Assembly: GCA_002733995.1 (NCBI GenBank)
Contig: NVXR01000010.1
Coordinates: 35,663-99,662, forward strand
Direction: 5' to 3'
Source: Desulfotalea sp.
GTDB taxonomy: Bacteria; Desulfobacterota; Desulfobulbia; Desulfobulbales; Desulfocapsaceae
DNA length: 64,000 nucleotides
Shown: piece by piece, positions 30,636-55,771 of the stretch
How positions within the stretch are numbered: position 1 is the first letter of the stretch
How the letters are laid out: every line of letters begins with the position of its first letter
Translations under genes and position numbers: made by a program
Notes under the pieces: generated by a model
The model's input: the letters and a program-made list of their open reading frames with translations, nothing else
The model's database searches: none
What the model was told of the DNA's origin: nothing

Positions 30636-31751
30636 ATGGCTTTATCATTTATGGAAGGGAATGAAGCTCTCGCTAGGGGAGCTATTGCTGCAGGATGTAA
30701 TTTCTTTGCGGGGTATCCGATTACTCCGGCCACCACTATTTTTACCAGTATGCTTAAGATGCTACCCCCAATCGGCGGTATCTGTGTCCAGGGCGAAGAT
30801 GAAATATCCTCAATGGGATATTGTCTTGGTGCAGCCATGGCGGGTAGCAAAGTATTGACCGCAACATCTGGGCCTGGAATGAGCCTGTACAGTGAACAGA
30901 TCTCCTTTGCCATTGGTAGTGAAATACCCCTTGTGATTGCAGATGTCCAGAGGCTTGGGCCTTCGACCGGTTCTGCAACGCGGGGAGCGGATAGCGATAT
31001 TCAATTTTTACGTTGGGGAAATACCGGTGGTCTGCCGGTTATCGTTCTGGTTCCCAAGGATGCTGAGGATTGTTATCTCCTGACCGTTCATGCATTTAAC
31101 TATGCAGAAGAATTTCGATGTCCTGTCTTTATTGCCTCCAATAAAGAGATTGGCATGACCAGGGAGAGCTTTGATCTTGACGGTGTTGAACTGCCTCCTC
31201 TTGTTGAACGGAAAATGTTTACCGGTGAGGATTATTTGCCCTTCCAGGCAGAAGAGGCAATGGCCCCCCCTTTCCTACCTATTGGTGGTAAAACACTTGT
31301 TAGACAGACCTCCTCTACCCATGGTCCCGATGGGTATATAACGAACTCCCCCGAAGTGATTGCTGCGACTCAGAAAAGACTGGAACGTAAAATTGTTGCA
31401 GCCGAAGAACGAATCACACTTTTTGAAGAAAATCGTAAAGAAGATGCCGATACCCTGATAATCTGCTACGGCGTTACAGCCAGGGCTGTTGCCGATGCAA
31501 GTGCTATGCTGGAACAGGCCGGTAGGATCGTTTCTACTCTTACCCTTAAGAGCCTCTGGCCCGTGCCTGAAAAATTGCTTAGGAAAAAAGCTGCCTCTTG
31601 CCGGCGAGTTGTGGTAATTGAAATGAACCAGGGACAGTATGTCGGGGAGATTCAAAAGGTACTTCTGGATAAAATAATCGAGTTCTATGGTCAGATGGAT
31701 GGGGCTTTGATTACCCCTGCAAAAATAATGGAGGTTGTTGCAAATGACTAG
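30636..31751 (+). CDS. 2-oxoacid:ferredoxin oxidoreductase alpha subunit
   Basis: EGNEALARGA, AGYPITP, EDEISS, TATSGPG and QRLGPSTG motifs. Confidence 0.94.
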   Translation: MALSFMEGNEALARGAIAAGCNFFAGYPITPATTIFTSMLKMLPPIGGICVQGEDEISSMGYCLGAAMAGSKVLTATSGPGMSLYSEQISFAIGSEIPLVIADVQRLGPSTGSATRGADSDIQFLRWGNTGGLPVIVLVPKDAEDCYLLTVHAFNYAEEFRCPVFIASNKEIGMTRESFDLDGVELPPLVERKMFTGEDYLPFQAEEAMAPPFLPIGGKTLVRQTSSTHGPDGYITNSPEVIAATQKRLERKIVAAEERITLFEENRKEDADTLIICYGVTARAVADASAMLEQAGRIVSTLTLKSLWPVPEKLLRKKAASCRRVVVIEMNQGQYVGEIQKVLLDKIIEFYGQMDGALITPAKIMEVVAND

Positions 31752-33039
31752 TTTTTTGAACGAAAACCGCCCTCCTGTTTTTTGTCCAGGCTGTACCCAT
31801 CAAAATATCACCAAAGGACTCGACAGGGCGTTACTACAGATTGGTTTTGCCGCTGATAAAACAGTTATTGTCAGTGATATTGGTTGTTCCGGCCTCTTTG
31901 ACACCTTCTTTAATGTCCACGCTTTCCATGGGCTTCATGGTCGTGCTTTGACCTATGCTTCCGGGCTAAAGCTCGCCAATCCTGGGTTGAATATCATTGT
32001 GACCATGGGGGATGGTGGGCTTGGTATTGGTGGTGCCCATCTGCTCGCTTCCTGTAGAAGAAATCTTGATCTCACCCTGCTTATTCTCAATAATTTCAAC
32101 TTTGGTATGACCGGTGGACAGTATTCCGTCACCACGCCGGGGGATGCAGTCGTAGGATCCGGTTTTTTAAACCAGGCAGAAATCCCTATTGATATCTGTG
32201 CTATAGCAGAAAGTGCAGGGGCCAGCTGGGTTGGCCGGTGTTCCGGTAATGGTGCCGATCTGAGTGATCAGATCCTTGCTGCAATGCAACACAAGGGGTT
32301 CTCGGTTCTGGAAACCCTTGGTTTGTGTACCGGCCGTTACACCAAAAAAAATAAGCTCACCACAAAAATCCTTGAGCAGATGCTTACGGAGTTACCTGCC
32401 AGGAATGGTCTGGTTGAAAAGAATGTACGGCCTGAATATGGCGATCTTTACAGGAAACTTGCTGCTGAAAAGACCAGTTTCCCAAAGCCGCTTAGCATCG
32501 CCCAAAAATTTATTCTTGAAAACGCGGAGCCGCAGGAAGTTCTCATCCTAGGCAGTGCAGGTATGAGGATTGTCACTGCCGGTGATATTGTCTGCTTCGC
32601 AGGGATGTCGGCAGGAATGAACGTTTCTATGAAAAATGACTATAATATTACGGTCCTTCGGGGGCAGTCTGTCAGTGAAATCCTGATTTCGCCTAATAAA
32701 ATTGGCTATGCAGGGGTGAAGAACCCTTCTGTAGTCTTGGCCCTCAGTGATGAAGGTGTGCACAGACGCATAGGCATCTTTAAGGACCTGGCGGCATCCG
32801 CCCTTGTTGTTAAGGAAAAAAATGTAGGAATTCCTGAAACACGGGCTGAGGTTTATGAAGTTGATTTTAAGGAATATAAGGTGAGTAAACCAGACTGGGC
32901 ATTGGCCTCACTCGGCGTTTTGGCGGCAAGGGGTCAGCTGTTCACTCGACCTATGCTTGAAGGTGCCATCAAAGCCCGTTTTAATGAAAAGCGCTCTCTC
33001 AAGGCCTTGGAAATAGTAGGAAAGATGATTCGGGCTTGA
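31744..33039 (+). CDS. 2-oxoacid:ferredoxin oxidoreductase beta subunit fused to a gamma-like domain
   Basis: FCPGC, DIGCS, HGRA, ThDP motif MGDGG...NNFNFGMTGGQ and LCT; C-terminal gamma-like ILGSAGMRI...LRGQSVSEILIS. Confidence 0.9.
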   Translation: MTSFLNENRPPVFCPGCTHQNITKGLDRALLQIGFAADKTVIVSDIGCSGLFDTFFNVHAFHGLHGRALTYASGLKLANPGLNIIVTMGDGGLGIGGAHLLASCRRNLDLTLLILNNFNFGMTGGQYSVTTPGDAVVGSGFLNQAEIPIDICAIAESAGASWVGRCSGNGADLSDQILAAMQHKGFSVLETLGLCTGRYTKKNKLTTKILEQMLTELPARNGLVEKNVRPEYGDLYRKLAAEKTSFPKPLSIAQKFILENAEPQEVLILGSAGMRIVTAGDIVCFAGMSAGMNVSMKNDYNITVLRGQSVSEILISPNKIGYAGVKNPSVVLALSDEGVHRRIGIFKDLAASALVVKEKNVGIPETRAEVYEVDFKEYKVSKPDWALASLGVLAARGQLFTRPMLEGAIKARFNEKRSLKALEIVGKMIRA

Positions 33040-33180
33040 CGGAGTAAAGCCCCTGTTTAATTGCCGATCCAGAGCTGTACTCCTGTAACTCTTGAGACAA
33101 ACGGATCTCTTCCAAGAGGGCTTTCTGCCTGCGGGTGTGATCCTGGAAAATTTTGCAACTGGTGTTGAACAATACAAAAG

Positions 33181-34926
33181 GTGACGTCATTGAATAAGGC
33201 CATCAGCGATAAAGACATTGTTGCTTGTCTCAGTAGCGCAATCATTGCCACCGATGAGCATGGACGTATTACCCATGTTAACCGGGAGAGTGAAAAGAAA
33301 TTACACCTTGTAGCGCCAGAGCTGATAGGTGAAAACATTGCAGACGTTCTCCCAGTCTTGGCTACGGTTGTTATGGAGTGCTTGGCGGACGGTGTACAAG
33401 TCATGGATAAACTCGTTGAGCTGGTTGACCTGCAATGTGTTATCCATGTCAATCCCGTTTGGTCTGCTGGGGGGCTTGTCGGCGCTGTCTTGAGTTTCAA
33501 TGTATCAGATATGTCCGAAGTCTCGGTCAGGAAATCTGATTCTTATAAGGAATTGAATCGACAGCTCAAAACTATTATTGGTGCCTCTTCAGATGGCATA
33601 TGGGTCTGTAACGCCAAGGGCGTTGTGGTCACGATTAATAGCGCCTCGGAATCCCTTAACGGTATTAAGGCAAGGGACGTTATCGGCAAGAATGTTTCAA
33701 ATCTTCTCGACAATAACAATTTCGACCAGCTGGTAACCACTAAGGTTCTCGAAAGTGGTCAACAAGAGACTATCGTTCAACATGTAAAAAAAACCAACAG
33801 GCTTTTGTTGTGTACAGGCACCCCCGCACGTGATGAAAGCGGAAATGTTGCGCTTATTGTTGTCAACGAAAGAGACATGACTGAGCTTGAAAACCTGCGT
33901 ACTAAATTCGAACAAAATAAAAAAATCACCGCTAAATTTAAGGAAGAGTTGTCAGAATTATCACTGCGTGAACTTGAGCAGAACAGCATTATTGCGGACA
34001 GTAGTCAGATGCAGCAAATTCTTCAAAAATCAAAAAAACTTGCTCATATTGGTGCCTCCAATATCTTGATTCTTGGGGCTTCGGGTACCGGAAAAGGTTT
34101 GTTGGCAAAGTCCATTCATAAAAACAGCAGTAGGCGTGAGAATGCCTTTATTGAAATCAACTGTGCAGCAATACCAGAAAATCTGCTGGAGGCTGAGCTC
34201 TTTGGTTTCGAAAGAGGGGCGTTCAGTGGTGCAGCAGAAGTCGGCAAGGTAGGTCTGTTTGAGCTGGCCCAGGGAGGAACGATTTTTCTCGATGAGATTG
34301 GGGATATGCCTCTAAACTTGCAGACAAAACTCCTCAAGTATCTCGACGATAAACAGTTTAGACGTCTTGGCGGAACGAAGGAAATAAAGGTTGAATGTTC
34401 GACAATTTCCGCCACCAATCGAAATCTGCAGGAGCGGGTACAAGACAATCTGTTTCGGGAGGATTTGTTTTATCGTCTGAGCAGCTTTACCCTGGAGATT
34501 CCCTCTCTGTGCGATCGCAGGGATGATATTCCCGGATTGGTTCACTTCTATCTGGAAAAATACAATAAAAAATATAATAGGTTGATCCGGGTCAGCGCCT
34601 CTGTGGTTGCGCAGCTGAAAACCTACTCCTTTCCGGGTAATGTTCGTGAATTAAAAAATATAATTGAAAATGGAGTGGTCCTCAGTGAAGATGCAACCCT
34701 GGATAGATACCTTGCAAATATAGGAAAAGGTAACCCTCCCTTGGTTACAAATGTTGATCTTTCGACAGCGTCTGCTGATATGGATTTATCCGCCACCCTT
34801 AATGAGGTTGAAAAGCAACTCCTTATTAAGGCCAAACAGCGTTGCAACACGACTCGACAGATGTCCAAGGTTCTCAATATCTGCCAATCAACTGTAGTGA
34901 GGAAAATGCAGAAACATGGTTTGTAA
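33181..34926 (+). CDS. Sigma-54-dependent enhancer-binding protein with PAS domains and a TyrR-like HTH
   Basis: Two PAS-like segments; Walker A GASGTGKG; INCAAIP, GAFSGA, FLDEIG, FREDLFYRL and GNVREL motifs; C-terminal TTRQMSKVLNICQSTVVRK. Confidence 0.95.
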   Translation: MTSLNKAISDKDIVACLSSAIIATDEHGRITHVNRESEKKLHLVAPELIGENIADVLPVLATVVMECLADGVQVMDKLVELVDLQCVIHVNPVWSAGGLVGAVLSFNVSDMSEVSVRKSDSYKELNRQLKTIIGASSDGIWVCNAKGVVVTINSASESLNGIKARDVIGKNVSNLLDNNNFDQLVTTKVLESGQQETIVQHVKKTNRLLLCTGTPARDESGNVALIVVNERDMTELENLRTKFEQNKKITAKFKEELSELSLRELEQNSIIADSSQMQQILQKSKKLAHIGASNILILGASGTGKGLLAKSIHKNSSRRENAFIEINCAAIPENLLEAELFGFERGAFSGAAEVGKVGLFELAQGGTIFLDEIGDMPLNLQTKLLKYLDDKQFRRLGGTKEIKVECSTISATNRNLQERVQDNLFREDLFYRLSSFTLEIPSLCDRRDDIPGLVHFYLEKYNKKYNRLIRVSASVVAQLKTYSFPGNVRELKNIIENGVVLSEDATLDRYLANIGKGNPPLVTNVDLSTASADMDLSATLNEVEKQLLIKAKQRCNTTRQMSKVLNICQSTVVRKMQKHGL

Positions 34927-35051: not shown

Positions 35052-35321
35052 ATGCAATTGGAGCCGGACAAAGAAGTAAAAATTGAAGTAACGCAATGCG
35101 ATTGTGACCTCATGAAAAAAGGGGACTGCCTTTACCTGAAGGGCCCCATGATCGATAAGGATAAATCTGATACTATTTGTGTGACGGCGCTTACCGCGAT
35201 TTACCCCTGGGTCATGACGGCTCGTTTTGGCGTTGAATCTAAAAATCTGGAATTTGATCAGGGCTGTTATAAGGTCTGGTGTCCAGAAAAATTAGTGGAG
35301 TTTAGTATTCGTCCGCTTTAA
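35052..35321 (+). CDS. TIGR04076-family small protein
   Basis: KIEVTQCDC...KGD, CVTALTAIYPWVMTARFG and WCPE pattern; GGAGG RBS. Confidence 0.75.
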   Translation: MQLEPDKEVKIEVTQCDCDLMKKGDCLYLKGPMIDKDKSDTICVTALTAIYPWVMTARFGVESKNLEFDQGCYKVWCPEKLVEFSIRPL

Positions 35322-35703: not shown

Positions 35704-35719
35704 TGGTATTGTTCTTGCT
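35704..35719 (+). promoter_or_regulatory. Sigma-54 (-24/-12) promoter of gabT
   Basis: TGGTATTGTTCTTGCT: GG-N10-GC with TTGCT, 55 nt upstream of the gabT ATG. Confidence 0.8.
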
Positions 35720-35773: not shown

Positions 35774-37081
35774 ATGACACAGCCACAAACAAATGCATCT
35801 TTAAATGAACGTCGAAAGAATGTTATCGCCAAAGGTTTTGGTAGTTCCACCGATAAATACATTGCCCACGCTAAAGGCGCGGTGATTACCGATGTTGAAG
35901 GCCAGGATTATCTCGATTTTGCCGGTGGTATTGCAGTGATGAATGTGGGGCATTCCCATCCAAAGGTGGTCAAAGCCCTGAAGGATCAGGCCGAAAAATT
36001 TACCCACACCTGCTTTATGGTTGCCCCCTATGAATCACCGGTAACACTTGCAGAAAAGTTGTGTGAAGCAGCTCCTGGGGATTCTAAAAAAGCGGTCATG
36101 TTTGTTAGTAGTGGCGCGGAAGCTGTTGAAAATGCGGTAAAAATTGCACGGTATTACACTCAGAAAACAGGGGTGATTGCCTTTGACTGCGCCTTCCATG
36201 GTCGTACCTTAATGGGCATGACTCTTTCCTCTAAAATCAAGCCCTACAAACATGGTCTTGGCCCCTTTGCCCCTGAAGTGTACCGCATGCCGTATGCAAA
36301 CTGTTATCGCTGCCCGTTCGGCAAAGAGCATCCTTCCTGTGATCTTGCCTGTGCAGATTACATGGAGGACTTTTTGATAAACCATGTAGGCGCTGAGCAG
36401 ACGGCTGCAATTATCATTGAGCCAATTCAGGGAGAAGGTGGTTTTATTGTACCTCCTAAAGAGTATTTTAAGCGTTTGAAGGCTATCTGCGAGAAACACT
36501 CCATCCTCATGATTGCCGATGAAATCCAGACCGGAATTGGCCGGACCGGTTATATGTTTGCAATGGAATATTATGGAATTGAGGCGGATATTACCACCGT
36601 TGCCAAAAGCCTCGGTGCAGGAATGCCTATAAGTGCCGTCATTGGCAAGAAAGAGATAATGGACTCTGTGCATCCTGGTGGTATTGGTGGGACCTATAGT
36701 GCTAACCCGATGGCTTGTGAAGCGGCCCTCGCTGTTTTTGATATCTTTGAAACGGAAGATCTTCTTGCTAAGGCAAAGGTTCTTGGGGAGAAGCTTTATT
36801 CAACGTTAAAAGCATTCCAGGAAAAGCACTCATTTATCGGTGACGTGCGCGGTGTTGGGCCGATGATCGCAATGGAATTTGTTTTGGATAAAGAGAAAAA
36901 GACACCTGCACCTGACAAGGCTAAGCAACTTGTTGACTTTTGTTTGCAGAGAAATCTTATTATTTTAGCCTGCGGCACCTATGGAAACGTTATCCGGTTA
37001 CTCATGCCTCTGGTTATCACCGAAGAACAGTTGACCAAAGGTTTGGAAATTATGGGAGATGGGCTGACCGCCATCAGCTGA
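35774..37081 (+). CDS. gabT: 4-aminobutyrate/5-aminovalerate--2-oxoglutarate transaminase (class III PLP)
   Basis: DFAGGIAVMNVGHSHP, SGAEAVENAVKIAR, FHGRT, EPIQGEGG, DEIQTG, VAKSL (PLP lysine) and GGTY motifs. Confidence 0.92.
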   Translation: MTQPQTNASLNERRKNVIAKGFGSSTDKYIAHAKGAVITDVEGQDYLDFAGGIAVMNVGHSHPKVVKALKDQAEKFTHTCFMVAPYESPVTLAEKLCEAAPGDSKKAVMFVSSGAEAVENAVKIARYYTQKTGVIAFDCAFHGRTLMGMTLSSKIKPYKHGLGPFAPEVYRMPYANCYRCPFGKEHPSCDLACADYMEDFLINHVGAEQTAAIIIEPIQGEGGFIVPPKEYFKRLKAICEKHSILMIADEIQTGIGRTGYMFAMEYYGIEADITTVAKSLGAGMPISAVIGKKEIMDSVHPGGIGGTYSANPMACEAALAVFDIFETEDLLAKAKVLGEKLYSTLKAFQEKHSFIGDVRGVGPMIAMEFVLDKEKKTPAPDKAKQLVDFCLQRNLIILACGTYGNVIRLLMPLVITEEQLTKGLEIMGDGLTAIS

Positions 37082-37298: not shown

Positions 37299-39062
37299 AT
37301 GTTTGGACATTATAATCGCATTTTAACAATCAATCTCACAGATAGATCGGTGCTCATTGAACCGGTCACCGATGAGGTTCTTGCCGAATGCTCCGGAGGT
37401 AAGGGCTTGGCGACACGTCTGCTGCTTGAGCGAAATACGCCGGGCGTCGATCCTCTTTCGCCGGGGAATCATCTTATCTTTGCCACGGGTTCCTTCTGTG
37501 GTGGACGTATGTGGGGTGCCAGTAGATATGGGGTCTATACCAAATCCCCCCTCACCGGTTTTTACGCTGAATCCTATTCTGGTGGTAAGGTTCCTGAGGC
37601 CATCGACTCTGCAGGATTTGATGCAATTATTCTGACGGGTAAAGCTGATAAGCCAACTGTTCTTACCATCACCCCCGATGGTGCCGAATTTCACGATGCG
37701 GGTGATTTATGGGGGACTGATTCGATTGTGGCGGAAGAAATTGTGGAAAAACGCTATGCCACAGATAATAAGGACTATCGCAAAGCCGGGGCCGTCACCA
37801 TTGGGCCGGCCGGAGAAAAAATGGTCAGGTTCGCTCTTATCGCCAACGACAAATGGCGGTGTGCAGGCAGAACGGGTGCGGGTGCTGTAATGGGGTCCAA
37901 ACATGTTAAGGCCATCGTTTTTCAGGGTGACAAAAAACGCCAATACGCCGATCCGGATGCCGTTGCCCTGTTTGCTAAAGAATTTGGCAAAAAAAACAGT
38001 CAGGGTCCAGCTGCCAAAGCCTATAAAGCAATGGGCACTACCATGATGGTTTCCCTGATGAATAATGTGGGAGCCTTTCCAACCAAATACTGGAGCCAGG
38101 GCTCCTGCGAGCACTGGGAAAAGATAAGTGGGGAACAGTTTCACGCAGACCATGAAATAAAACCCCATGCCTGTGCAAAATGTTTTATGGCCTGTGGTCG
38201 CATGGCAAAAATAAAAAAGGGCCGGCATAAAGGACTTCAACTGGAAGGACCGGAGTATGAGACTATCTACTCCTTCGGTGGAATTTGTATGGTCGACGAT
38301 ATGGCTGAAATTGTACACCTCAACGATATCTGCGATAGATTGGGGATGGATACGATCACCGCCGGTAATCTTTGTGGCTTGGCTATTGAGGCTAAACTGC
38401 GGGGCAAGATTGATTACGATATTGAGTACGGAAATGTTGACCAGATCGCAAGGCTTCTGCAGATGATATCCGATCGTGATGGTATTGGAGATATTCTTGC
38501 CGACGGTATTATTCCAGCTTCAAAGGACTGGGGAGTAGAAGATATTGCAATCCATGTAAAGGGGCTAGAACCCGCTGGATATGACCCTAGGGCGCTTAAA
38601 GGGATGGGACTTACCTTTGGTACCTCTCCTAGAGGTGCATGTCACTTGAGGACAACATTTTATAAACCTGAGCTTTCAGGCCTTATTCCGCCGGACCAGA
38701 CTGAAGACAAGGCTGAAATGCTTATTCAGTATGAGGACCGCCTTAATATTTTTGATACCTTGGTACTCTGTCGCTTTTATCGGGATATGTATACCTGGGA
38801 TGAGTTAGAGCCAGCTGTGCGGGCTGTTACTGGACTGCCAAGCACCCAGGCTGATCTTGAGAAAATTGCTCGAAATATCATCAATATGACCAGACAATTC
38901 AACCTGCAGGAAGGGTTAGTTCCCGAGGACGATAGGTTGCCTAAGCGTATCCATAAAGAGGCTTTGCCTTCAGGAGAGTCTCTCTCCTTCGAGGAAATGG
39001 AATATATGTTACAGGACTATTATCGGTTGAGAAACTGGGATGAAGCGGGCGTGCCACTCTAG
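37299..39062 (+). CDS. Aldehyde:ferredoxin oxidoreductase (tungstopterin AOR family)
   Basis: KSPLTG, IGPAGEK, AGRTGAGAVMGSKHVKAI, CAKCFMACG, EGPEYET, DRLGMDTI and RGACHL motifs. Confidence 0.95.
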   Translation: MFGHYNRILTINLTDRSVLIEPVTDEVLAECSGGKGLATRLLLERNTPGVDPLSPGNHLIFATGSFCGGRMWGASRYGVYTKSPLTGFYAESYSGGKVPEAIDSAGFDAIILTGKADKPTVLTITPDGAEFHDAGDLWGTDSIVAEEIVEKRYATDNKDYRKAGAVTIGPAGEKMVRFALIANDKWRCAGRTGAGAVMGSKHVKAIVFQGDKKRQYADPDAVALFAKEFGKKNSQGPAAKAYKAMGTTMMVSLMNNVGAFPTKYWSQGSCEHWEKISGEQFHADHEIKPHACAKCFMACGRMAKIKKGRHKGLQLEGPEYETIYSFGGICMVDDMAEIVHLNDICDRLGMDTITAGNLCGLAIEAKLRGKIDYDIEYGNVDQIARLLQMISDRDGIGDILADGIIPASKDWGVEDIAIHVKGLEPAGYDPRALKGMGLTFGTSPRGACHLRTTFYKPELSGLIPPDQTEDKAEMLIQYEDRLNIFDTLVLCRFYRDMYTWDELEPAVRAVTGLPSTQADLEKIARNIINMTRQFNLQEGLVPEDDRLPKRIHKEALPSGESLSFEEMEYMLQDYYRLRNWDEAGVPL

Positions 39063-39288: not shown

Positions 39289-39807
39289 TCAGGAACTTTC
39301 GGGTGGCACCATGGTCACAGGAATTGTACTCTTTTTCAATATGCGTTTTGCGGTACTACCAACGGCTGTTTTAGAGAACATGTTCTTATGCCCCCCAAGT
39401 ACAATAAGGCCGCATTCATTTTTCTGAGAATGGCTTAGGATTTCTGCCACGATATCACCGTGGCTAATTATTATTTCACGGGATGTGAAATCGGCTGAAC
39501 CTTTCTGCATATCTTCCTGTTTGCAGAAATCATGTATTGCCTTTCTTACAACTGAGTTTGTGGGAGTCTTGCCGAGCAGGGATTTGTGGGCGGTTAGTTT
39601 ATGGGAGTCGAGCATTTCTTCCCATTGATGAACACCAACAATGTTTTTTACTCTTACATCCACATGTTCGGACAGTTTTTCAATCACATAGAGCATATAT
39701 ATCGTTGCATCCAGGCGGGTTGCTATATCGATAGTGAAGTCAAAAGCCCGCTGGCAATTTGCTGTTAAGTCTGTTGCAAAGAGAATCGATGTAACCGGTT
39801 TTATCAT
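39289..39807 (-). CDS. Universal stress protein (UspA family)
   Basis: ILFATDL...; IVLGGH...VGSTAKRILKKSTIPVTMVP. Confidence 0.9.
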   Translation of the reverse strand: MIKPVTSILFATDLTANCQRAFDFTIDIATRLDATIYMLYVIEKLSEHVDVRVKNIVGVHQWEEMLDSHKLTAHKSLLGKTPTNSVVRKAIHDFCKQEDMQKGSADFTSREIIISHGDIVAEILSHSQKNECGLIVLGGHKNMFSKTAVGSTAKRILKKSTIPVTMVPPESS

Positions 39808-39942
39808 GGTATTTTTACCTTCCATTCAATGTGAAATCCCGAAAAATTCTGGGTAAAAAACTCTTCGTTAATCTAGCTTTACTAGGCACCAACCCGGATA
39901 GTTTCGTCTTATTCAGAATAAGTGCCTTTCTGTTTCAGCGGC

Positions 39943-47930: not shown

Positions 47931-48701
47931 TTACGCCAGAACGGCGGTTTTTTCTTTTAGAATAGCAATTAACTGGTCGGCCAGCTCTGCAGAATCTCCT
48001 TCGAGAACAACTCCACCACCTTTTTTCTCAGGGAAGTAGAGGGATAACGTCTCTTGGAGGACTGCAACACCCAAGAGGTCAGCGACAGGTGTTACGACGA
48101 GTTCCTTCTTCTTGGCCTTCATGATATTGGGGAGGGTTGGGTAACGGGGAGTGTTGAGTCCAAGCTGACAGGTTACTAGTGCTGGAAGAGGGGCCTTAAC
48201 CATTGCCTTCACACCACCCTCAAGCTCTCTTTGAACGGTTATCTGGCCAGCATCAAAGGCAAAGCTGACGATGGTGGTGATACTGGGGATCCCAAGCATT
48301 TCTGCGGTAAGTACCCCCACCTGAGCGCTACCCCTGTCCTGTGATTGCATGCCGGTGAAGATCATGTCAAAGGATTTTTGTTCAGCAAATTTTGCGATAA
48401 TTGAGGCTATAGCAAAGGGATCTTTATCAAAAGACTCAGCATCTGTAACATGGATACCTCGGTCGCATCCCATGGCAAGTGCCTTCTTCATGGTCTCTTT
48501 TACTCGGTCTGGGCCAATGCAAAGTACGGTAAGGTCAGCACCGGTTTGTTCCTTTAGTTGAACCGCCTGCTCCACCGCGTATTCGTCATATTCGTTCATG
48601 CGCCATGCCAGATCAGAACTGTCATACCAGCAGCCTTCAGCGTTCACCTTGAATTTTGACTCCATGTCAGGAACCTGTTTGATACAAACCAATATATTCA
48701 T
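47931..48701 (-). CDS. etfB: Electron transfer flavoprotein beta subunit
   Basis: ILVCIKQVPD, MNEYDEYAVE, ALAMGCD, QSQDRGSAQVG and PRYPTL motifs; true start 48701 (the ORF-track extension is spurious). Confidence 0.96.
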   Translation of the reverse strand: MNILVCIKQVPDMESKFKVNAEGCWYDSSDLAWRMNEYDEYAVEQAVQLKEQTGADLTVLCIGPDRVKETMKKALAMGCDRGIHVTDAESFDKDPFAIASIIAKFAEQKSFDMIFTGMQSQDRGSAQVGVLTAEMLGIPSITTIVSFAFDAGQITVQRELEGGVKAMVKAPLPALVTCQLGLNTPRYPTLPNIMKAKKKELVVTPVADLLGVAVLQETLSLYFPEKKGGGVVLEGDSAELADQLIAILKEKTAVLA

Positions 48702-49093: not shown

Positions 49094-49549
49094 CTATTCT
49101 TTATTTTTTTCTGGGATCTGAACCATTACTGCAGATCCTTCGGCACAAAGTTTACCGAGGGCAGAAAGTGTCAGCTCTACCACAACCTTTCGGCCTTTAA
49201 TTTCCGTGATCTTTCCCCGGATATCAAGCGGAGTATTTATTGGGGTGGGGGCGCGGAAATCTACCTTCAATGATGCGGTTACAAATCGGCCAAGAGGTTT
49301 GTTTTCTGCCCGGGCTTTAGCCGCCGCAGCGGTTGCGGCCCCATGACAATCAAGTAGGGAGGCTATCATTCCGCCATAGAGAAAACCGGGAAAGCCACCG
49401 GAATATTTAGCGTCCGGTGTGAATTGACAGATTGTTTCATCGCCATCCCAATAGCTTTTGATCTGTAGGCCTCCATCGTTGAGTCTTCCGCAGCCGTAGC
49501 AGTGTGCGAACTCGTCTGGATATTGATCTTGAAAGGCTTGTGTTGTCAT
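49094..49549 (-). CDS. PaaI/hotdog-fold thioesterase
   Basis: CYGCG, YGGMIASLLDCH and VTASLKVDFRAPTP motifs. Confidence 0.9.
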   Translation of the reverse strand: MTTQAFQDQYPDEFAHCYGCGRLNDGGLQIKSYWDGDETICQFTPDAKYSGGFPGFLYGGMIASLLDCHGAATAAAAKARAENKPLGRFVTASLKVDFRAPTPINTPLDIRGKITEIKGRKVVVELTLSALGKLCAEGSAVMVQIPEKNKE

Positions 49550-49614: not shown

Positions 49615-50901
49615 TTATCTGCTGACGACCATAGCCATTCCCATGCCGCCACCTATACACATACTGATAAGCCCGGTAGCATAGCCTTTTCTCTCCATCT
49701 GATACATGCCTGTAACCAGCTGTCTAGCGCCGGTACAACCGACGGGGTGTCCCATGGAGATACCGCTGCCAAGCTCATTGGGTTTTTCGATATCGATACC
49801 AAGCTCTAGCATGCAGCCAATGGCCTGGGCGGCAAAGGCTTCGTTCAGCTCGATCAAATCAATATCAGCAATATTCATCTTGGTCTGCTTGAGTACCTTG
49901 TGGATTGCGGGAACTGGTCCCATACCCATGTATGCTGGATCGAGTCCACCTGCGGCAAAGCCGTCGATTGTCAGGATGGGTGTGAGTTCTAGTTCCTTGG
50001 CTTTTGCCTCGCTCATCATTACCACTGCTGCTGCACCGTCGTTGACACCGGAGGCATTCCCTGCGGTGACGGACCCAGCTGGATCGAAGACCGGTCGCAA
50101 CCTAGCCATTTTCTCCATGTTGGTTGCCATCGGTCGTTCATCGGTGGTAAAGAGAATTTCTTCCCTGCGGGATTTTACCTTAACGGGAACAATTTCCGAG
50201 GCAAAGAGCCCATCGTCTCTGCCGCAGCAGGCCCGGGCGTGGCTCATTACGCTGAGCTTATCCTGGTCTTCGCGGCTGATTGCATACAACTTAGCGATGT
50301 TTTCGGCCGTTATTCCCATGTGATAGCCATAAAAGATCTCGTAGAGAGCATCAAAGACCATCAGATCGGTGACCTCACCCGAACCTGTCAGCTCCATACG
50401 GTGTCCCCAGCGCGCCTTGGGCAGGGCCATAGGAGCCATACTCATGTTTTCCTGGCCCCCTGCCACTATTATTTCAGCCTGACCTGAGATGATAGCCTGG
50501 GCACCGAGGGCAATGGCTTTGAGGCCGGAACCACAGATTTTATTGACAGTGTAGGCAGGCGTCTCCTTGGGGATTCCGGCTTTAATCATAGCTTGACGGG
50601 CAGGATTTTGTCCCTGTCCTGCCTGGAGGACATTACCCATGATAACTTCATCAATATCCACGGGTATAGTTTGCATGTCCCAGGACTCTTGGTCCTCTTC
50701 CAGTGGTATACGACCCTGGTCTTGGAGTTTGTCCGGGGTATAGCACATTATGGCGTCGCTTGTCGCCGGACGAAGACCAATTTTTTGTAGAGATTCATGC
50801 AGTACCGTTGCGCCGAGGTGTACCGCTGAGACGTTCTTTAATGCTCCTCCGAAACTGCCCACAGCTGTTCTACAGCCACTTACAATCACAGCTTTATTCA
50901 T
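49615..50901 (-). CDS. Acetyl-CoA C-acetyltransferase (thiolase)
   Basis: NKICGSG (catalytic Cys), GGQENMS, NASGVNDGA, NEAFA, GHPVGCTG and CIGGG motifs. Confidence 0.96.
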   Translation of the reverse strand: MNKAVIVSGCRTAVGSFGGALKNVSAVHLGATVLHESLQKIGLRPATSDAIMCYTPDKLQDQGRIPLEEDQESWDMQTIPVDIDEVIMGNVLQAGQGQNPARQAMIKAGIPKETPAYTVNKICGSGLKAIALGAQAIISGQAEIIVAGGQENMSMAPMALPKARWGHRMELTGSGEVTDLMVFDALYEIFYGYHMGITAENIAKLYAISREDQDKLSVMSHARACCGRDDGLFASEIVPVKVKSRREEILFTTDERPMATNMEKMARLRPVFDPAGSVTAGNASGVNDGAAAVVMMSEAKAKELELTPILTIDGFAAGGLDPAYMGMGPVPAIHKVLKQTKMNIADIDLIELNEAFAAQAIGCMLELGIDIEKPNELGSGISMGHPVGCTGARQLVTGMYQMERKGYATGLISMCIGGGMGMAMVVSR

Positions 50902-50944
50902 TTTGTCAGCTCCTTATAACTCCATAATTTTAAGGTCTGCGGTT

Positions 50945-52702
50945 TTATCCTTTGATAGTACGAGGAAGGAGCATTTGATGGATCGGGGTGATTGATCTTG
51001 GATTCTGGTAGTTTGCACCAACAAAGGCCTGAATATATTTACGGAGGTTGGGCAGCTCTACAATTTCATCAACCAGCCCATTCATTGCACAAAAAGCCGG
51101 ACGGGATTTTTCCTGATAATCTTTGATCATCTGGTTCATCTTGTCCAATACCGGTTCAAGGTCGTGGCCCGCCGCATCTTCTTTTACCAGACGTCTGGCA
51201 TATGAGGCAGCGGCCGCGGTCTCGCCGTGCATGACATAGATTTCGGTCATTGGCGTACCAAGGGTGAAGGCGTTGTTGTTGTTCGCCTGTGGTCCACACA
51301 TAATGTAGTGGGCGGCGGCGGATCCTTTACGCAGGATAATGCACATCATAGACAGTTCGGTCTGCTCAATTGAGTAGACTAAAGACTGGCCAAGAGAAAG
51401 GAGTTCCGCTTCCTCGGCCAGGTCGCCAACATCGATGCCAGTGGTGTCCTGTAGCCAGATAATTGGCAGATTGTCCCGTCCACAGAGGGTGACGAATTCG
51501 GCTTGTTTGATAAGCCCTTCCCGGTAATGTTTACCACCGACTGCAAAATAGGCTCCGTCGGCATATTTTGGGTAATCGGGAAAGAAGCCCTGGTTGTTAC
51601 CGATGAAGGCAACCGGGAAGCCGTCAACCTTGGCAAGTCCGGCGAATACCTCGGGGCCATAGTCGGGCCGATATTCCATAAATTCGCTATTGTCGGTGAG
51701 GCGGGCAAGAATCTCTTTGGCGTCATACTGACGTTTTTGGTTGATTGGCAGGATCTTGTTCAGATCATCGGCTGCAAACTTTGGCGGTGCGGGCGCTGCA
51801 ACACGAAACATTGTGGGGTCGTAGGCCGGCATCATTTTCATATAATCTTTGATACCATCAAGCACACCACGTTCGGTATCGTGCACCTCCCTGAAGTATG
51901 CGGTATGGTCAAAATGGGTTTCAACCCTGCCAGGACTCTTGGATTTGAAGTTTTTTGTTGCCTTAATCAAGGCGTGTGCTGCCTCAATATCGAAATGTCC
52001 TTTAGGATTCATGCCGCCGACAATACCAGCACCTCCCACGGCAATGTTGGCATTTTCATGGGCAAGTAAGATGGTTGGACTGATTCCCTGGTACCCACCC
52101 CCTGCAGGGTTGGTGCCATAGATGGCATTGAGGATAGGTACGCCCAGATGATTGAGTTCTGCATGGCGGAAAAAGGGAGTGCCGCTTGAACGCCGACCGG
52201 CGTAGACTGTCTCTTGTTCCATGAGTTTTACGCCGCTGCAGTTCGTGAGCCAGACTAAAGGCACATTCAAGCGTTTTGCCATATCCGTGACCATAAGGAT
52301 ATTCTCGGATTGACCCGATATCCAGGCACCGGCCATCACCTTGTTGTCAAAGCCAATGATAATGGCCCACTTACCGCATATTTTGCCAATTCCGTTGACC
52401 ACACCTGTACACCCTTCCTCGTTATCCCGTGGGTTGTAGAGTGTATGCAGAGGGGACCATGTACCTTCGTCAACGAGGTAGTCTAAGCGATCATAGATGG
52501 TCATTGACCCGCGATCATGGATCTTTTTTGCAGGGATGCCAGCGTTTTTGACCCGCTCCACCTCTTTGGCAATAATTTGTTCCTGCTCTTCGATTAACTC
52601 AATATTTTCAAGTGTTCGTTGAACATCAGCATCGGTGAGGGCTGTGCCAATATCCGCCATTTTTTCAAAATATGGACGCAATGGCGTTTGTTTGCGTGAC
52701 AT
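50945..52702 (-). CDS. gcdA: Glutaconyl-CoA decarboxylase alpha (carboxyltransferase) subunit
   Basis: GAW..GQ, NCSGVK..EQE.VY..RR..GTPFFR.AELN.LG, YGTNPAGGGY..ISPT, GGAGIVGGMNPKG and LRKGSAAAHYIMCGPQA match the GcdA pattern. Confidence 0.9.
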   Translation of the reverse strand: MSRKQTPLRPYFEKMADIGTALTDADVQRTLENIELIEEQEQIIAKEVERVKNAGIPAKKIHDRGSMTIYDRLDYLVDEGTWSPLHTLYNPRDNEEGCTGVVNGIGKICGKWAIIIGFDNKVMAGAWISGQSENILMVTDMAKRLNVPLVWLTNCSGVKLMEQETVYAGRRSSGTPFFRHAELNHLGVPILNAIYGTNPAGGGYQGISPTILLAHENANIAVGGAGIVGGMNPKGHFDIEAAHALIKATKNFKSKSPGRVETHFDHTAYFREVHDTERGVLDGIKDYMKMMPAYDPTMFRVAAPAPPKFAADDLNKILPINQKRQYDAKEILARLTDNSEFMEYRPDYGPEVFAGLAKVDGFPVAFIGNNQGFFPDYPKYADGAYFAVGGKHYREGLIKQAEFVTLCGRDNLPIIWLQDTTGIDVGDLAEEAELLSLGQSLVYSIEQTELSMMCIILRKGSAAAHYIMCGPQANNNNAFTLGTPMTEIYVMHGETAAAASYARRLVKEDAAGHDLEPVLDKMNQMIKDYQEKSRPAFCAMNGLVDEIVELPNLRKYIQAFVGANYQNPRSITPIHQMLLPRTIKG

Positions 52703-52808: not shown

Positions 52809-53966
52809 TTAGCGGTTTTGAGTATCGCCCATGGAGATGCCTGCGATGATGATTTTCTGAATATTACTGGTGCCCTCGACGACTCGTAGAGACTGGGCGT
52901 CGCGTAGGAACCTTTCAGCAGGGAACTCCGTCGAGAAGCCGTAGCTGCCGAAGATCTTCATCGTGTCGCTGGTGGCATGTACCGCCGCTTCAGAGGCGAA
53001 TAATTTGGCGATCGAGGTTTGGTGCTGGTTGGGCATTCCCTGGTCCTTCAACCAGGCAGCTTGATAGACGAGCAATTTGGCGGCCTCATGTTCAGCTACC
53101 ATATCTGCGATCTGGGACTGGACCATCTGGTAAGAGCCTATCTTTTTACCGAACTGAGTGCGTTCGTTAGCATAACCGATTGCAGCCTCCACAGCCCCGC
53201 CGCCGATACCCAGCGCTCCAGCGGCACAACTGATTCTGGTGTTGTTAAGTTGCCACATACAAATCTGGAAACCTTGGCCAACCTCACCCAGTATGGAATC
53301 CTTAGGAATCTTTGCCTTGGCAAAGGCAATCTCACCGGTGGGGGAGCAGTGCAGGCCAAGTTTAGTCTCTATGGCGGCTGTGGTAATGCCTTCGTTATCT
53401 TTCAGATTGACGATAAAGCAGGTCATGCCCTTGTACTTTTTTGTTTTATCGGTGAAGGCGTAGACGAGGCCCCAGTCACCTATATGGGCATTGGAGATCC
53501 ACATCTTTTGCCCGTTTAATTCCCAGTGATCTCCACGGTCAGTAGCTGTTGTCCCCATTCCAGCCACATCCGATCCTGAGTTTGGTTCGGTAATGGCAAA
53601 AAAACCGAATGATTCACCTTTAACCCAGGCTGGGATGTAGGTTTCTTTTTGAACTGTGCTACCAAATTTGTTGACGGTTATCGCAGGTCCAATATTCTGC
53701 ATGTTGAGGGGCACCCGCCAGGACCCGCTTACCATTGCCAACTGTTCGGCTAGGAGAACCGATTCGAAGAAGCCACAACCGTTTCCACCATACTCTTCAG
53801 GAAGTGCGCAGCCAAAGAAGCCAAGATCAGCCATCTTTTTCACCAGTTCCGGGCGAAATGTATGGTTGAGTTCATCTTCCTTAAGGGTGGGGACGATTTC
53901 TTTTTGGGCAAAGTCCCTGGCCATATCTTGCATCATTTTCTGTTCGTCAGTTAAACCGAATTGCAT
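52809..53966 (-). CDS. Glutaryl-CoA dehydrogenase, non-decarboxylating type (acyl-CoA dehydrogenase)
   Basis: ACAD motifs (ITEPNSGSD, WISN, ERTQFG); WRVPLNM and VVEG (Val before the catalytic Glu) resemble the Desulfococcus multivorans enzyme (LRVQLNM, MVEG; recalled); adjacent to gcdA. Confidence 0.8.
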   Translation of the reverse strand: MQFGLTDEQKMMQDMARDFAQKEIVPTLKEDELNHTFRPELVKKMADLGFFGCALPEEYGGNGCGFFESVLLAEQLAMVSGSWRVPLNMQNIGPAITVNKFGSTVQKETYIPAWVKGESFGFFAITEPNSGSDVAGMGTTATDRGDHWELNGQKMWISNAHIGDWGLVYAFTDKTKKYKGMTCFIVNLKDNEGITTAAIETKLGLHCSPTGEIAFAKAKIPKDSILGEVGQGFQICMWQLNNTRISCAAGALGIGGGAVEAAIGYANERTQFGKKIGSYQMVQSQIADMVAEHEAAKLLVYQAAWLKDQGMPNQHQTSIAKLFASEAAVHATSDTMKIFGSYGFSTEFPAERFLRDAQSLRVVEGTSNIQKIIIAGISMGDTQNR

Positions 53967-54089: not shown

Positions 54090-54105
54090 TGCAGAATATG
54101 TGCCA
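54090..54105 (-). promoter_or_regulatory. Sigma-54 (-24/-12) promoter of the glutaryl-CoA dehydrogenase operon
   Basis: Minus strand reads TGGCACATATTCTGCA (TGGCAC-N5-CTGCA; GG-N10-GC). Confidence 0.85.
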
Positions 54106-54181
54106 TGTGCATAGTAATGTGTATGTCACTGTAATGAGGATGGATGGCAGTATCTTGAGGTGCAGGGAGGAGGTGGCTGTT

Positions 54182-54298
54182 TGTAGGGGGGGCGCTACAG
54201 TTTGTGCGGAAAAGAGGGCTTTCCCCCCCTAAGAGGCCTAAGTTGCCTGCTTTTTCTTAGATGTAGGGTGAAGCCTACAGTGTAGGGGATATGCTACG
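54182..54298. promoter_or_regulatory. Three TGTAG-N8-CTAC(A/G) palindromes: candidate upstream activator sequences
   Basis: Copies at 54182-54199, 54262-54279 and 54281-54298, about 77-190 nt upstream of the -24 box. Confidence 0.78.
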
Positions 54299-54325
54299 GT
54301 CGTTGCTGCGCTTGCATTGGGCGGT

Positions 54326-55771
54326 TCATTTTATTTGGCTGTCGTTGGAAGTCGCCTTGGTTTTATGAATTTTATCGTACAAAGATGTTCTGTGAATACC
54401 TAGTAATTTTGCTGCTTTCGTCTTGTTGCCCTGGACGGATTGGAGAACCTCTTCAATCACTCTTTTTTCTGTCTCCTGGAGGATTTGCTTGAGGTTGTAG
54501 CCCCCGGGATAATCGATGATTCTGTTAGTTGTCTCGGTGCAGTCTCGGATCTGCTCGGGCAGATCTTCTGGACTGATCTTCTCACCCTTGGCGATTATGC
54601 TGGCCTTTTCCATGACATTTCTCAGCTCTCTGACATTCCCCGGCCAGAAATAGTGTTGTAGTAGATCCATTGCCTCTTCAGAGATGGCCGAAGGACCCCA
54701 GGTAATTTCGGTTTTAAGTTGGGCGAGGAGATGTCTTGCAATCAGAGGAATGTCCTGGGGCATCTGCCGTAGACTTGGTGCTTGAATGTTAAAAACATTA
54801 ATTCTGAAATAGAGGTCGCTTCTGAATTTACCTTCTGTGATCAGCGCACTAAGGTCACGATTTGTAGATGCTATCAGGCGGAAATCTACGGGTATCGTGT
54901 TCGTTCCACCAAGTCGATCCACAGATCGCTCTTGCAGAACCCTAAGCAGTTTGCCCTGCATCGCGAGTGGTAATTCGCCGATTTCATCGAGTAAAATAGT
55001 ACCTCCATGGGCCATTTCGAATTTTCCTGGCTTTCCCTTGCTGCTGGCACCTGTAAACGCCCCTGGCTCATAGCCAAAAAGCTCGCTTTCAAAAAGCTCA
55101 AGAGGAATGGAGGCACAGTTGACTTTAATAAAAGGTTTATTAGCCCTGTGACTCGACTGATGGATAAAATAGGCTATAATTTCTTTTCCAGTACCGGATT
55201 CGCCGGTAACCAAAATGGTTGCAGTTGTTTTTGCAGCCAGCGTCGCTTTCTCTTTGACGTCTTGAAGAGGGGCAGACTCACCGATGAGAGGATTGGCCCC
55301 TTTGAGTTCATGTATCTGACTTTGGAAGTATTGTACTTGTCCGTCGAGGAGGTCGACTTTTCGCTGTAAGTCATAGAGTCGGGTAACCTCGTTCAACATA
55401 CCTTTGCCCACCGCCCCGATCACCTGTCCTGCTCGATTTTTGAGTGGAATTCTGGAGATGAGTTGTCGGCGTCCACCAATGTATAGCATGTCTCCTATTC
55501 TCGCCTTACCGTCCTTTAGAATCTCGTGTAGGCGGGTATCTGTTACAACCTCAGTGATGTGTTTACCAACGGCTTCTTCACTGTTTATGCCAAGGAGTTT
55601 ATCACTGTAACGACTCATAAATGTGATGACACCATCCTTACCAATCACCATGGGGCATTCGTAAGGATTATCGATAAGGGCATAGATGAGTTCGTCATCA
55701 AGGTCGCTTAACTTAGATCTGCTGGTGTCTTTATCGTTCATTTCTGGTTCCTGCGGATGTGAAGTTATCAC
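54326..55771 (-). CDS. Sigma-54-dependent Fis-family enhancer-binding protein with a PAS domain
   Basis: GESGTGKE, VNCASIP, GAFTGA, LLDEIG, FRSDLYFRI and WPGNVREL motifs; HTH NKTKAAKLLGIHRTSLYDK; start may be ATG 55741. Confidence 0.96.
   Translation of the reverse strand: MITSHPQEPEMNDKDTSRSKLSDLDDELIYALIDNPYECPMVIGKDGVITFMSRYSDKLLGINSEEAVGKHITEVVTDTRLHEILKDGKARIGDMLYIGGRRQLISRIPLKNRAGQVIGAVGKGMLNEVTRLYDLQRKVDLLDGQVQYFQSQIHELKGANPLIGESAPLQDVKEKATLAAKTTATILVTGESGTGKEIIAYFIHQSSHRANKPFIKVNCASIPLELFESELFGYEPGAFTGASSKGKPGKFEMAHGGTILLDEIGELPLAMQGKLLRVLQERSVDRLGGTNTIPVDFRLIASTNRDLSALITEGKFRSDLYFRINVFNIQAPSLRQMPQDIPLIARHLLAQLKTEITWGPSAISEEAMDLLQHYFWPGNVRELRNVMEKASIIAKGEKISPEDLPEQIRDCTETTNRIIDYPGGYNLKQILQETEKRVIEEVLQSVQGNKTKAAKLLGIHRTSLYDKIHKTKATSNDSQIK

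Follow-up and report, generated by a model that had tools for sequence, protein, structure and literature searches.

A candidate strictly anaerobic route from 5-aminovalerate to crotonyl-CoA with an aldehyde:ferredoxin oxidoreductase step in a Desulfocapsaceae gene region

The window analysed here is a stretch of 64,000 nt from the Desulfotalea sp. assembly GCA_002733995.1 (contig NVXR01000010.1, positions 35,663-99,662 of the forward strand). Its source is a metagenomic member of the Desulfocapsaceae, the named relatives closest to it are Desulforhopalus, Desulfocastanea, Desulfosediminicola and Desulfopila, and its sequence occurs in subsurface and marine-sediment metagenomes. The region under study, at positions 30636-55771 of the window (the numbering used throughout), is a candidate for the anaerobic degradation of 5-aminovalerate and contains two convergent gene arms. 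The plus arm carries gabT, which codes for a GabT/DavT-type aminotransferase, followed by a gene of the aldehyde:ferredoxin oxidoreductase (AOR) family. The minus arm carries, along the direction of transcription, the genes of a sigma-54 activator (s54R2), an acyl-CoA dehydrogenase (Acd), the glutaconyl-CoA decarboxylase subunit GcdA, a thiolase, a 4HBT-family protein, EtfB, EtfA, an IclR-type regulator, a CoA-transferase, the transporter DctPQM and Usp. Gene identities were assigned from a listing of the open reading frames (ORFs), from Pfam and NCBIfam profile scans and by comparison with the sequences of solved structures. An earlier reading of this DNA (the original prediction) had described the plus arm as sigma-54-controlled gabT and AOR, and the minus arm as Acd, GcdA, thiolase, thioesterase, EtfBA, IclR, a GctAB-type CoA-transferase and a TRAP (tripartite ATP-independent periplasmic) transporter. 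The ORF listing and the scans recovered each of these genes at or near its proposed place, together with the activator and the promoter element of the plus arm. The gene models of EtfB and of the CoA-transferase subunits were corrected from the gene calls on the same contig: EtfB, proposed as a 334-aa ORF, is 256 aa long (47931-48701), and the lengths of CtA and CtB are 325 and 254 aa. The original prediction did not discuss two further elements of the region, a 2-oxoacid:ferredoxin oxidoreductase and a TIGR04076 gene, and missed a glutamate dehydrogenase that completes the gabT-AOR module in relatives.

GabT (35774-37081, plus strand) is a class III omega-amino acid:2-oxoglutarate aminotransferase. 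It passes the TIGR00700 model (538.5 bits, cut-off 506.65) and stays below the own cut-offs of the other GABA (gamma-aminobutyrate) transaminase models. Among solved structures, E. coli GabT (1SF2, 405 bits) comes closest, and every one of the top 12 is a GabT or PuuE. In E. coli, GabT accepts C4 as well as C5 substrates, and GabT/GabD convert 5-aminovalerate and GABA about equally well (PMC6265302).

The AOR-family protein (37299-39062, plus strand) contains the AFOR_N and AFOR_C domains over its full length (PF02730, 227 bits; PF01314, 393 bits) and was aligned to 1AOR over residues 1-584. The nearest solved relatives are 9MQX (378 bits) and 1AOR (366 bits), with the formaldehyde ferredoxin oxidoreductase (FOR) at 270 bits; by sequence, the window enzyme is nearer to AOR sensu stricto than to FOR. 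The [4Fe-4S] ligands C292, C295, C299 and C491 align with C288, C291, C295 and C494 of the Pyrococcus furiosus AOR. T247, E321, Y428 and H449 align with Thr243, Glu313, Tyr427 and His448 of the same protein, which a recent review lists as second-shell residues of AOR (PMC12096430). All eight positions are invariant in 14 orthologues. The protein is predicted to be a tungsten-type (tungsto)pterin enzyme and is here proposed as a glutarate-semialdehyde oxidoreductase. Ferredoxin is the likely electron acceptor, since the AOR stands without partner subunits. As originally claimed, a gabD/davD-type aldehyde dehydrogenase is missing from the window: tblastn with three aldehyde dehydrogenase-family queries and the Pfam scans found none in the 64 kb, and the scans gave no Aldedh domain in the other large ORFs of the window.

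Upstream of gabT lie two genes of the plus strand. The first (s54R1, 33190-34926) codes for a sigma-54 enhancer-binding protein with a PAS sensor, the presumed activator of gabT-AOR, whose orthologues sit upstream of gabT in most related loci. The second (35052-35321) codes for a Cys-rich protein of 89 aa from the TIGR04076 family (41 bits, cut-off 33). It is kept between activator and gabT at 86-91% identity in L016 and L170-L175 (L numbers designate the loci compared) and is absent from more distant gabT-AOR loci.

On the minus strand, the two CoA-transferase subunits are of the GctAB type. The alpha subunit (CtA, 44422-45399) and the beta subunit (CtB, 43358-44122), 325 and 254 aa long in the gene calls on the same contig, find their best solved relatives in 1POI_A (E 5e-68) and 1POI_B (E 2.4e-67), and the solved relatives after 1POI are far weaker for both. 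Glu54 of CtB, in an E-T-G motif, aligns with the catalytic Glu of GctB in E-S-G.

Acd (52809-53966, minus) resembles the non-decarboxylating glutaryl-CoA dehydrogenases. The best solved relative is 3MPI, the glutaryl-CoA dehydrogenase of Desulfococcus multivorans (344 bits; next 306), and Arg84 and Val363-Glu364 align with Arg87 and Val366-Glu367 of 3MPI. Valine in place of tyrosine before the catalytic glutamate, together with an arginine binding the distal carboxylate, is what we take, from the 3MPI work, to be the signature of the non-decarboxylating, glutaryl-binding type. GcdA (50945-52702, minus), the carboxyltransferase subunit of glutaconyl-CoA decarboxylase, matches 3GF3 and 1PIX over its full length at ~700 bits (E ~1e-209), the next carboxyltransferase family following at 131 bits. 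In most of 80 metagenome loci, an Acd orthologue of 74-91% identity directly precedes GcdA. Acd-GcdA is a nearly universal pair, usually accompanied by Tes and Etf. Tes (49094-49549, minus) is a hot-dog thioesterase-family protein with a 4HBT Pfam match and no NCBIfam match. It follows GcdA, directly or past thiolase and Hbd, at 74-88% identity in L084-L088, L090-L091, L124, L168-L169 and L172; the same was seen in all examined close relatives of the Acd-GcdA module. The thiolase (Thl, 49615-50901, minus), an acetyl-CoA C-acyltransferase, passes TIGR01930 (424 bits, cut-off 240.55). EtfB (minus, as above) and EtfA (47003-47920, minus), the electron transfer flavoprotein subunits beta and alpha, were identified by Pfam and NCBIfam.

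The remaining genes of the minus arm are concerned with regulation and transport. The activator s54R2 (54326-55771, minus), a sigma-54 enhancer-binding protein by Pfam and NCBIfam, is presumed to act on the Acd-GcdA operon, and its orthologues (72-74% identity) head the arm in L086-L088. An IclR/PcaR-like regulator (45872-46663, minus; Pfam and NCBIfam) is located upstream of the CoA-transferase and TRAP genes, and holds the same position in L170. The transporter is formed by the solute-binding protein DctP (42093-43121), the small permease DctQ (41262-41771) and the large permease DctM (39943-41265), all on the minus strand; DctP and DctM were assigned by Pfam and NCBIfam, DctQ by Pfam. The proposed ligand of DctP is 5-aminovalerate or glutarate; it is not inferable from structures, as the solved relatives are distant (best, a lactate-binding protein at 93 bits). 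DctM is 87-93% identical beside gabT-AOR in L016, L171-L175 and L088. The last gene, for the universal stress protein Usp (39289-39825, minus; Pfam), is a steady neighbour of the TRAP genes in relatives.

Both arms appear to be sigma-54-controlled, as had been predicted. The adjacent activators contain AAA+ Sigma54_activat and HTH domains, and a GG-N10-GC promoter lies upstream of the target gene. The -24/-12 element TGGTATTGTTCTTGCT (35704-35719, plus) is placed 55 nt upstream of gabT, and the near-consensus element TGGCACATATTCTGCA (54090-54105, minus) 124 nt upstream of Acd, both as expected. Across the window the motif is no more frequent than by chance (42 observed, 38 expected), so that only its position and its conservation across loci count. 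Of 58 orthologous loci, 36 have a TGG-N9-TGC match (mostly TTGC[AT]) in the 300 nt that precede gabT, in most cases at a distance of 66-116 nt. The corresponding motif upstream of Acd was found in 7 of 41 loci, because the operon begins further upstream in several relatives. A scan for sigma-70 promoters and terminators around gabT-AOR gave nothing above background.

The original prediction had made its pathway depend on the linkage of the two arms in related genomes. This linkage is found among the close relatives and disappears among the distant ones. Where GabT is at least 80% identical, gabT-AOR lies within 10 kb of glutarate/glutaryl-CoA genes (CtAB, EtfAB, Acd-GcdA or Tes) in 9 of 15 distinct contigs, a sample that is not unbiased, as some contigs were picked because they matched a known GcdA carrier in length. 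The three top-identity GabT matches on long contigs (P0251-P0253), which were picked blind to their content, are all linked. A survey of 80 AOR-centred loci had suggested that the arms are unlinked, with CoA-transferase and TRAP genes in L016 only; look-ups centred on GcdA and on GabT overturned this.

Orthologous gabT (80-90% identity) occurs near CoA-transferase, Etf, Acd-GcdA and TRAP genes in six gene orders. The convergent arms of the window are arrangement A. In arrangement B (L173/L174, and L016 from CtAB on) the order is EtfBA-CtAB-DctPQM-Usp-s54R1-TIGR04076-GabT-AOR-GDH, where GDH is glutamate dehydrogenase. Arrangement C, DctPQM-DAO-OorAB-EtfBA-Acd-GcdA-Tes-GabT-AOR'-GDH, is that of the isolate Desulforhopalus sp. 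IMCC35007 (L085) and of L168/L169; here Acd-GcdA-Tes-GabT-AOR' is co-directional with gaps of 27-70 nt. Arrangement D (L088, L172) joins s54R2-CtAB-Acd-GcdA-Tes-EtfBA-DctPQM-Thl-s54R1-TIGR04076-GabT-AOR-GDH-Usp in one co-directional string. Arrangement E, in Desulfocastanea catecholica (L170), reads s54R1-TIGR04076-GabT-AOR-GDH-IclR-CtAB-DctP, and arrangement F (L171) reads CCG-EtfBA-ArgJ-DctPQM-s54R1-TIGR04076-GabT-AOR-GDH-Usp. L175 shows TRAP genes only. Gene order was reshuffled repeatedly among the related genomes, yet the same set of genes remained together; a neighbourhood that survives rearrangement, with a tight co-directional string, is a classical signature of functional coupling. 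The co-occurrence of gabT-AOR with gcdA and glutaryl-CoA dehydrogenase genes, which had been proposed as a check, is found among the closest relatives, for example in the Acd-GcdA-Tes-GabT-AOR string of IMCC35007.

In line with the original prediction, the region probably codes for a modular and strictly anaerobic pathway that leads from a C5 omega-amino acid (most likely 5-aminovalerate) through glutarate to crotonyl-CoA. The arm linkage in the closest relatives and the fitting enzyme identities give this reading moderate support. The substrate is probably imported by the TRAP system, the genes of which always accompany the gabT unit in close relatives. GabT would convert 5-aminovalerate and 2-oxoglutarate into glutarate semialdehyde and glutamate, and in relatives the 2-oxoglutarate would be regenerated, with release of ammonium, by a large glutamate dehydrogenase of the NAD type whose gene directly follows AOR. 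The stand-alone AOR would then oxidize the semialdehyde to glutarate with reduction of ferredoxin, in the place of the NAD(P)-dependent DavD/GabD that aerobes employ. The GctAB-type CoA-transferase would activate glutarate to glutaryl-CoA, which Acd, with EtfAB as acceptor, would oxidize to glutaconyl-CoA without decarboxylation. GcdA, together with biotin-carrier and membrane subunits encoded elsewhere, would decarboxylate glutaconyl-CoA to crotonyl-CoA. Hydration and oxidation by enzymes from outside the window, and subsequently the thiolase, would lead to acetyl-CoA. Three regulators would control three units: s54R1 the conversion of amine to acid, IclR transport and activation, and s54R2 the oxidation of glutaryl-CoA.

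Several observations weigh against this reading. The GabT sequence cannot tell a C4 from a C5 substrate, so that the C5 substrate is argued from gene context alone; we know of no validated rule for telling C4- from C5-specific GabT, and the NCBIfam name of the window protein would be GABA transaminase. Acd scores 434.8 bits against NF045552, the Desulfococcus-type family, and is thus under the cut-off of 470, this family still being the best of 22. GcdB, GcdC, GcdD, crotonase and Hbd were not found among the annotated ORFs of the 64-kb window; GcdB/C/D may be encoded elsewhere in the genome. The window sequence is present in DNA metagenome runs only, with no RNA run containing it. L085 and L168 have no CoA-transferase in their visible sequence, and the model leaves unexplained both the 2-oxoacid oxidoreductase (window and arrangement C) and the DAO flavoprotein of arrangement C. 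In addition to the selection of contigs mentioned above, the close relatives L004, L005, L006, L008 and L011 have no arm link within 10 kb, and no such link is present in any of the 51 loci whose GabT is less than 80% identical. In L084, where the arm includes a 3-hydroxyacyl-CoA dehydrogenase, the Acd-GcdA module stands without gabT, and in L086 it lies beside benzoate-type genes, which makes it a general glutaryl-CoA module. Finally, some gabT-AOR pairs are found beside an aminobutyraldehyde dehydrogenase or SatP-like carriers, a setting into which a GABA-to-succinate role fits equally well.

In the L086 contig, from a metagenome-assembled genome of the Desulfocapsaceae, the string s54R2-CoA-transferase-Acd-GcdA-Tes-Etf stands beside genes for an AMP-forming ligase and a 646-aa AOR-family protein (L086:1-1954). 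These two could be a benzoate-CoA ligase and a BamB-like subunit of a class II benzoyl-CoA reductase, in which case the same module would also serve the breakdown of aromatics.

The gabT-AOR pair itself is a conserved module. The AOR-centred set comprises 80 genome loci of Desulfobulbales and Desulfobacterales with AOR orthologues of 64-87% identity, and in ~57 of them a GabT of more than 60% identity is encoded immediately upstream of AOR, usually behind an orthologous sigma-54 activator. A glutamate dehydrogenase gene, for a 449-aa GdhA or a ~1040-aa NAD-GDH-like form, is located directly after AOR or before gabT in many loci. This arrangement fits a closed deamination cycle, because the enzyme regenerates the 2-oxoglutarate of GabT. 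A Liv-type ABC transporter is recurrently inserted between gabT and AOR. Where GabT is less than 80% identical, the pair is either isolated or accompanied by glutamate dehydrogenase, Liv-type ABC transporters or aminobutyraldehyde dehydrogenase. A few loci have an aminobutyraldehyde dehydrogenase and a second aldehyde dehydrogenase, or two SatP-like carriers, and a few others a methylmalonate-semialdehyde-dehydrogenase-like aldehyde dehydrogenase and a beta-hydroxyacid dehydrogenase.

The more distant modules may well serve GABA. The same could be argued for the window: gabT-AOR would be a module that converts GABA, or GABA derived from putrescine, into succinate, independent of a glutaryl-CoA arm engaged in the breakdown of glutarate, pimelate or benzoate. 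The adjacency would then reflect the clustering of sigma-54-controlled organic-acid genes and not a shared pathway. All the best family and structure matches of GabT are GABA transaminases, the 51 more distant gabT-AOR loci are without any glutaryl-CoA genes, and the Acd-GcdA module can stand alone (L084) or with benzoate-type genes (L086). Moreover, in L007, L009 and L010 gabT-AOR is followed by an aminobutyraldehyde dehydrogenase (633.6 bits, cut-off 615), accompanied in L007 and L009 by the two SatP-like carriers, and Desulforhopalus singaporensis has a putrescine aminotransferase and a second AOR downstream. However, succinate formation needs no glutaryl-CoA genes, yet the orthologous gabT keeps such neighbours through six rearrangements, and in L085, L168 and L169 it has no separate regulator and is part of the Acd-GcdA-Tes-GabT-AOR string, in which the gaps measure 27-52 nt. 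The putrescine-type neighbours are also compatible with cadaverine and 5-aminovalerate, as PatA/PatD and GabT-type enzymes are promiscuous for C4 and C5 substrates (PMC6265302). For the window, a GABA role separate from the glutaryl-CoA arm is considered unlikely.

The distant loci also bear on other amine/aldehyde pairs, such as beta-alanine, beta-aminoisobutyrate, 6-aminohexanoate or taurine-type substrates, for which the link to glutaryl-CoA would be indirect. The methylmalonate-semialdehyde-dehydrogenase-like and beta-hydroxyacid dehydrogenase genes occur near gabT-AOR in L052, L058 and L067, the JGI labels of GabT relatives include (S)-3-amino-2-methylpropionate transaminase, and AORs are typically broad-spectrum enzymes (PMC12096430). 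On the other hand, such neighbours are restricted to distant loci, with GabT ~70-73% identical. None of these substrates gives a product that requires Acd-GcdA, and GcdA is specific to the C5 branch. This explanation is considered very unlikely.

The window departs from its relatives downstream of AOR. Glutamate dehydrogenase follows AOR in the 13 other clade-I contigs that possess it and is lacking in the window, where the 64 kb was searched for this gene, for a DAO-family gene and for a small 77-86-aa gene and none was found. Between positions 39062 and 39289, AOR is followed by the convergent Usp, and the ~1040-aa gdh-like and 77-86-aa winged-helix-like genes of nearly all close relatives (L170-L175) are missing. 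Relative to arrangement B, the block from EtfBA to Usp appears inverted and placed after AOR, and it includes an IclR gene that the contigs of arrangement B do not show. An inversion in which gdh was lost or relocated is likely.

The AOR gene has its own history. In L085, L168 and L169 the orthologous gabT (80% identity) is followed by a different member of the AOR family, 36% identical to the window AOR, which implies that an AOR was recruited to the gabT-adjacent position twice. This non-orthologous AOR (L085:13648-15480, L168:11411-13192) is a replacement at the same position. A second aminotransferase-AOR pair is encoded a few kb from gabT-AOR in Desulforhopalus singaporensis DSM 12130 (L011:12984-17906), and similar pairs are present at L010:1466-4677 and L078:4484-7400. 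The second aminotransferase of L011 passes the PatA model (647 bits, cut-off 612), it is followed by an AOR ~29% identical to that of the window, and a Na+/H+ antiporter-like carrier precedes the pair. This suggests that AOR also replaces PatD, and both aldehyde steps of diamine catabolism would then be AOR-dependent.

The genes of the two-subunit 2-oxoacid:ferredoxin oxidoreductase lie upstream of the plus arm. The alpha subunit (30636-31751, plus) contains POR_N and PFOR_II domains and scores 386 bits against NF006412, below the cut-off of 411; the beta subunit (31744-33039, plus; Pfam/NCBIfam and gene call) is fused to a gamma (POR) domain. The layout is unusual, with alpha alone (371 aa), a beta-gamma fusion (431 aa) and no delta ferredoxin subunit, and the same two-gene layout is present inside the Acd-GcdA-GabT cluster of L085 and L168. 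A homologue of the alpha subunit (62% identity) belongs to this cluster in L085, L168 and L169. The oxidoreductase would have a role if the region served lysine, pipecolate or 2-aminoadipate degradation. AOR would then act on 2-aminoadipate semialdehyde, the GabT-like enzyme would convert 2-aminoadipate into 2-oxoadipate, and the 2-oxoacid:ferredoxin oxidoreductase would form glutaryl-CoA from it directly, with no CoA-transferase required. The clusters of the window, L085, L168 and L169 hold the two-subunit enzyme, and the DAO-family flavoprotein of L085 and L168, where no CoA-transferase is visible, could be a pipecolate or amino-acid dehydrogenase. Against NF049976, a model for 2-aminoadipate transaminase, the score of GabT is substantial but under the threshold (382.8 bits, cut-off 650), and GabT is far closer to the GABA-transaminase models (550 and 538 bits). 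The CoA-transferase is present, and both the oxidoreductase and the DAO gene are absent, in four of the six arrangement types; it is on these two grounds, the arrangements and the model scores (550 vs 383), that the 2-aminoadipate route is rated very unlikely. Furthermore, an extra semialdehyde-making enzyme would be needed, of which the window has none, and most gabT-AOR loci are without these accessory genes.

The proposed 5-aminovalerate route is made of parts of known kinds. Like DavT/DavD of Pseudomonas and GabT/GabD of E. coli, it would use a GabT-type class III aminotransferase on 2-oxoglutarate and oxidize the semialdehyde to glutarate for further catabolism (PMC6265302). Unlike in those systems, the window contains no NAD(P)-dependent aldehyde dehydrogenase and has an AOR-family ferredoxin-reducing enzyme in its place, its glutarate would be processed by the CoA-transferase, the non-decarboxylating dehydrogenase and Gcd instead of the O2-dependent CsiD or the decarboxylating GcdH, and its genes are under probable sigma-54 control.

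The Acd-GcdA pair with Etf is shared with the lower benzoyl-CoA pathway of obligate anaerobes such as Desulfococcus multivorans and Syntrophus, which use a glutaryl-CoA dehydrogenase of the non-decarboxylating type together with glutaconyl-CoA decarboxylase (PMC5852087). The window module differs from it in that it would be fed from free dicarboxylate by the GctAB-type CoA-transferase, is coupled to an amino-acid module and not to ring cleavage, and has no adjacent GcdB/C/D genes. Among the AOR-family enzymes, the P. furiosus FOR (1B25, 1B4N) is a tungstoenzyme crystallised with bound glutarate, for which the oxidation of glutaric semialdehyde has been proposed (PMC12096430). The window enzyme, in contrast, is nearer to AOR sensu stricto, bacterial and mesophilic, and gene-linked to the aminotransferase that would make its substrate. 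The CoA-transferase resembles GctAB of Acidaminococcus fermentans (1POI), which both window subunits match best (E ~1e-67) with the catalytic Glu of the beta subunit kept. GctAB also accepts glutarate. The A. fermentans enzyme activates (R)-2-hydroxyglutarate in glutamate fermentation, whereas the window transferase would activate glutarate in an oxidative pathway.

The same carbon route in a strict anaerobe of a different phylum was reportedly proposed by Roeder and Schink in 2009, as the fermentative degradation of cadaverine and 5-aminovalerate via glutarate semialdehyde, glutarate, glutaryl-CoA, glutaconyl-CoA and crotonyl-CoA by a Firmicutes coculture, from enzyme assays in extracts. That work is said to have assigned no genes and to have described no AOR-family enzyme or gene cluster. 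In full-text searches of the literature available, neither a gabT-AOR module nor a 5-aminovalerate/GABA pathway that depends on AOR was found described, in agreement with the original prediction, to which the combination was not known. The new feature is an AOR that is genetically wired into the position of DavD/GabD and coupled to GctAB, Acd and Gcd in the Desulfocapsaceae.

Protein breakdown in anoxic sediments and guts commonly yields GABA and 5-aminovalerate, the latter from the Stickland reduction of proline and from the decay of lysine or cadaverine. To our knowledge, the consumption of these compounds by sulfate reducers, and the means employed, are poorly known. An aldehyde step that reduces ferredoxin, combined with a decarboxylation that translocates Na+, would alter the energy yield of the substrate and predict a tungsten requirement. 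More tentatively, and somewhat short of probable, the Desulfobacterota could possess a tungsten-dependent network for diamines and omega-amino acids where the NAD(P)-dependent aldehyde dehydrogenases have all given way to enzymes of the AOR family, with one AOR standing for PatD after the putrescine/cadaverine aminotransferase (L011) and another for GabD/DavD after GabT. Each aldehyde step would then deliver electrons at the level of ferredoxin, and the Desulforhopalus/Desulfocastanea clade would wire this network to GctAB, Acd and the Na+-pumping Gcd. Such a network would be a previously undescribed, energy-conserving consumption of 5-aminovalerate and cadaverine from protein decay by sulfate reducers. 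The proposed 5-aminovalerate route is directly testable, because two strains with a linked cluster, Desulfocastanea catecholica and Desulforhopalus sp. IMCC35007, are in culture. A more precise annotation than 'aldehyde ferredoxin oxidoreductase family protein' could also be given to the widespread gabT-AOR(-gdh) module.

The other large ORFs of the window include [NiFe] hydrogenase and maturation genes, tRNA synthetases, Pta, LutABC-like genes, citrate synthase and others. Two ORFs, at 4140-4760 (206 aa) and 5547-8108 (853 aa), have no Pfam match at E 1e-4. The minus strand between 12155 and 22221 codes for the small and large subunits of the [NiFe] hydrogenase, a cytochrome b and maturation proteins of the HypB, HycI, HypE, HypD and HypF types. 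Downstream of the minus arm, at 58071-63356, are placed LutABC-like genes (LUD and CCG domains), a NifU-like gene and citrate synthase, and between s54R2 and the LutABC-like and citrate synthase genes lie transporters of the EamA and AI-2E families.

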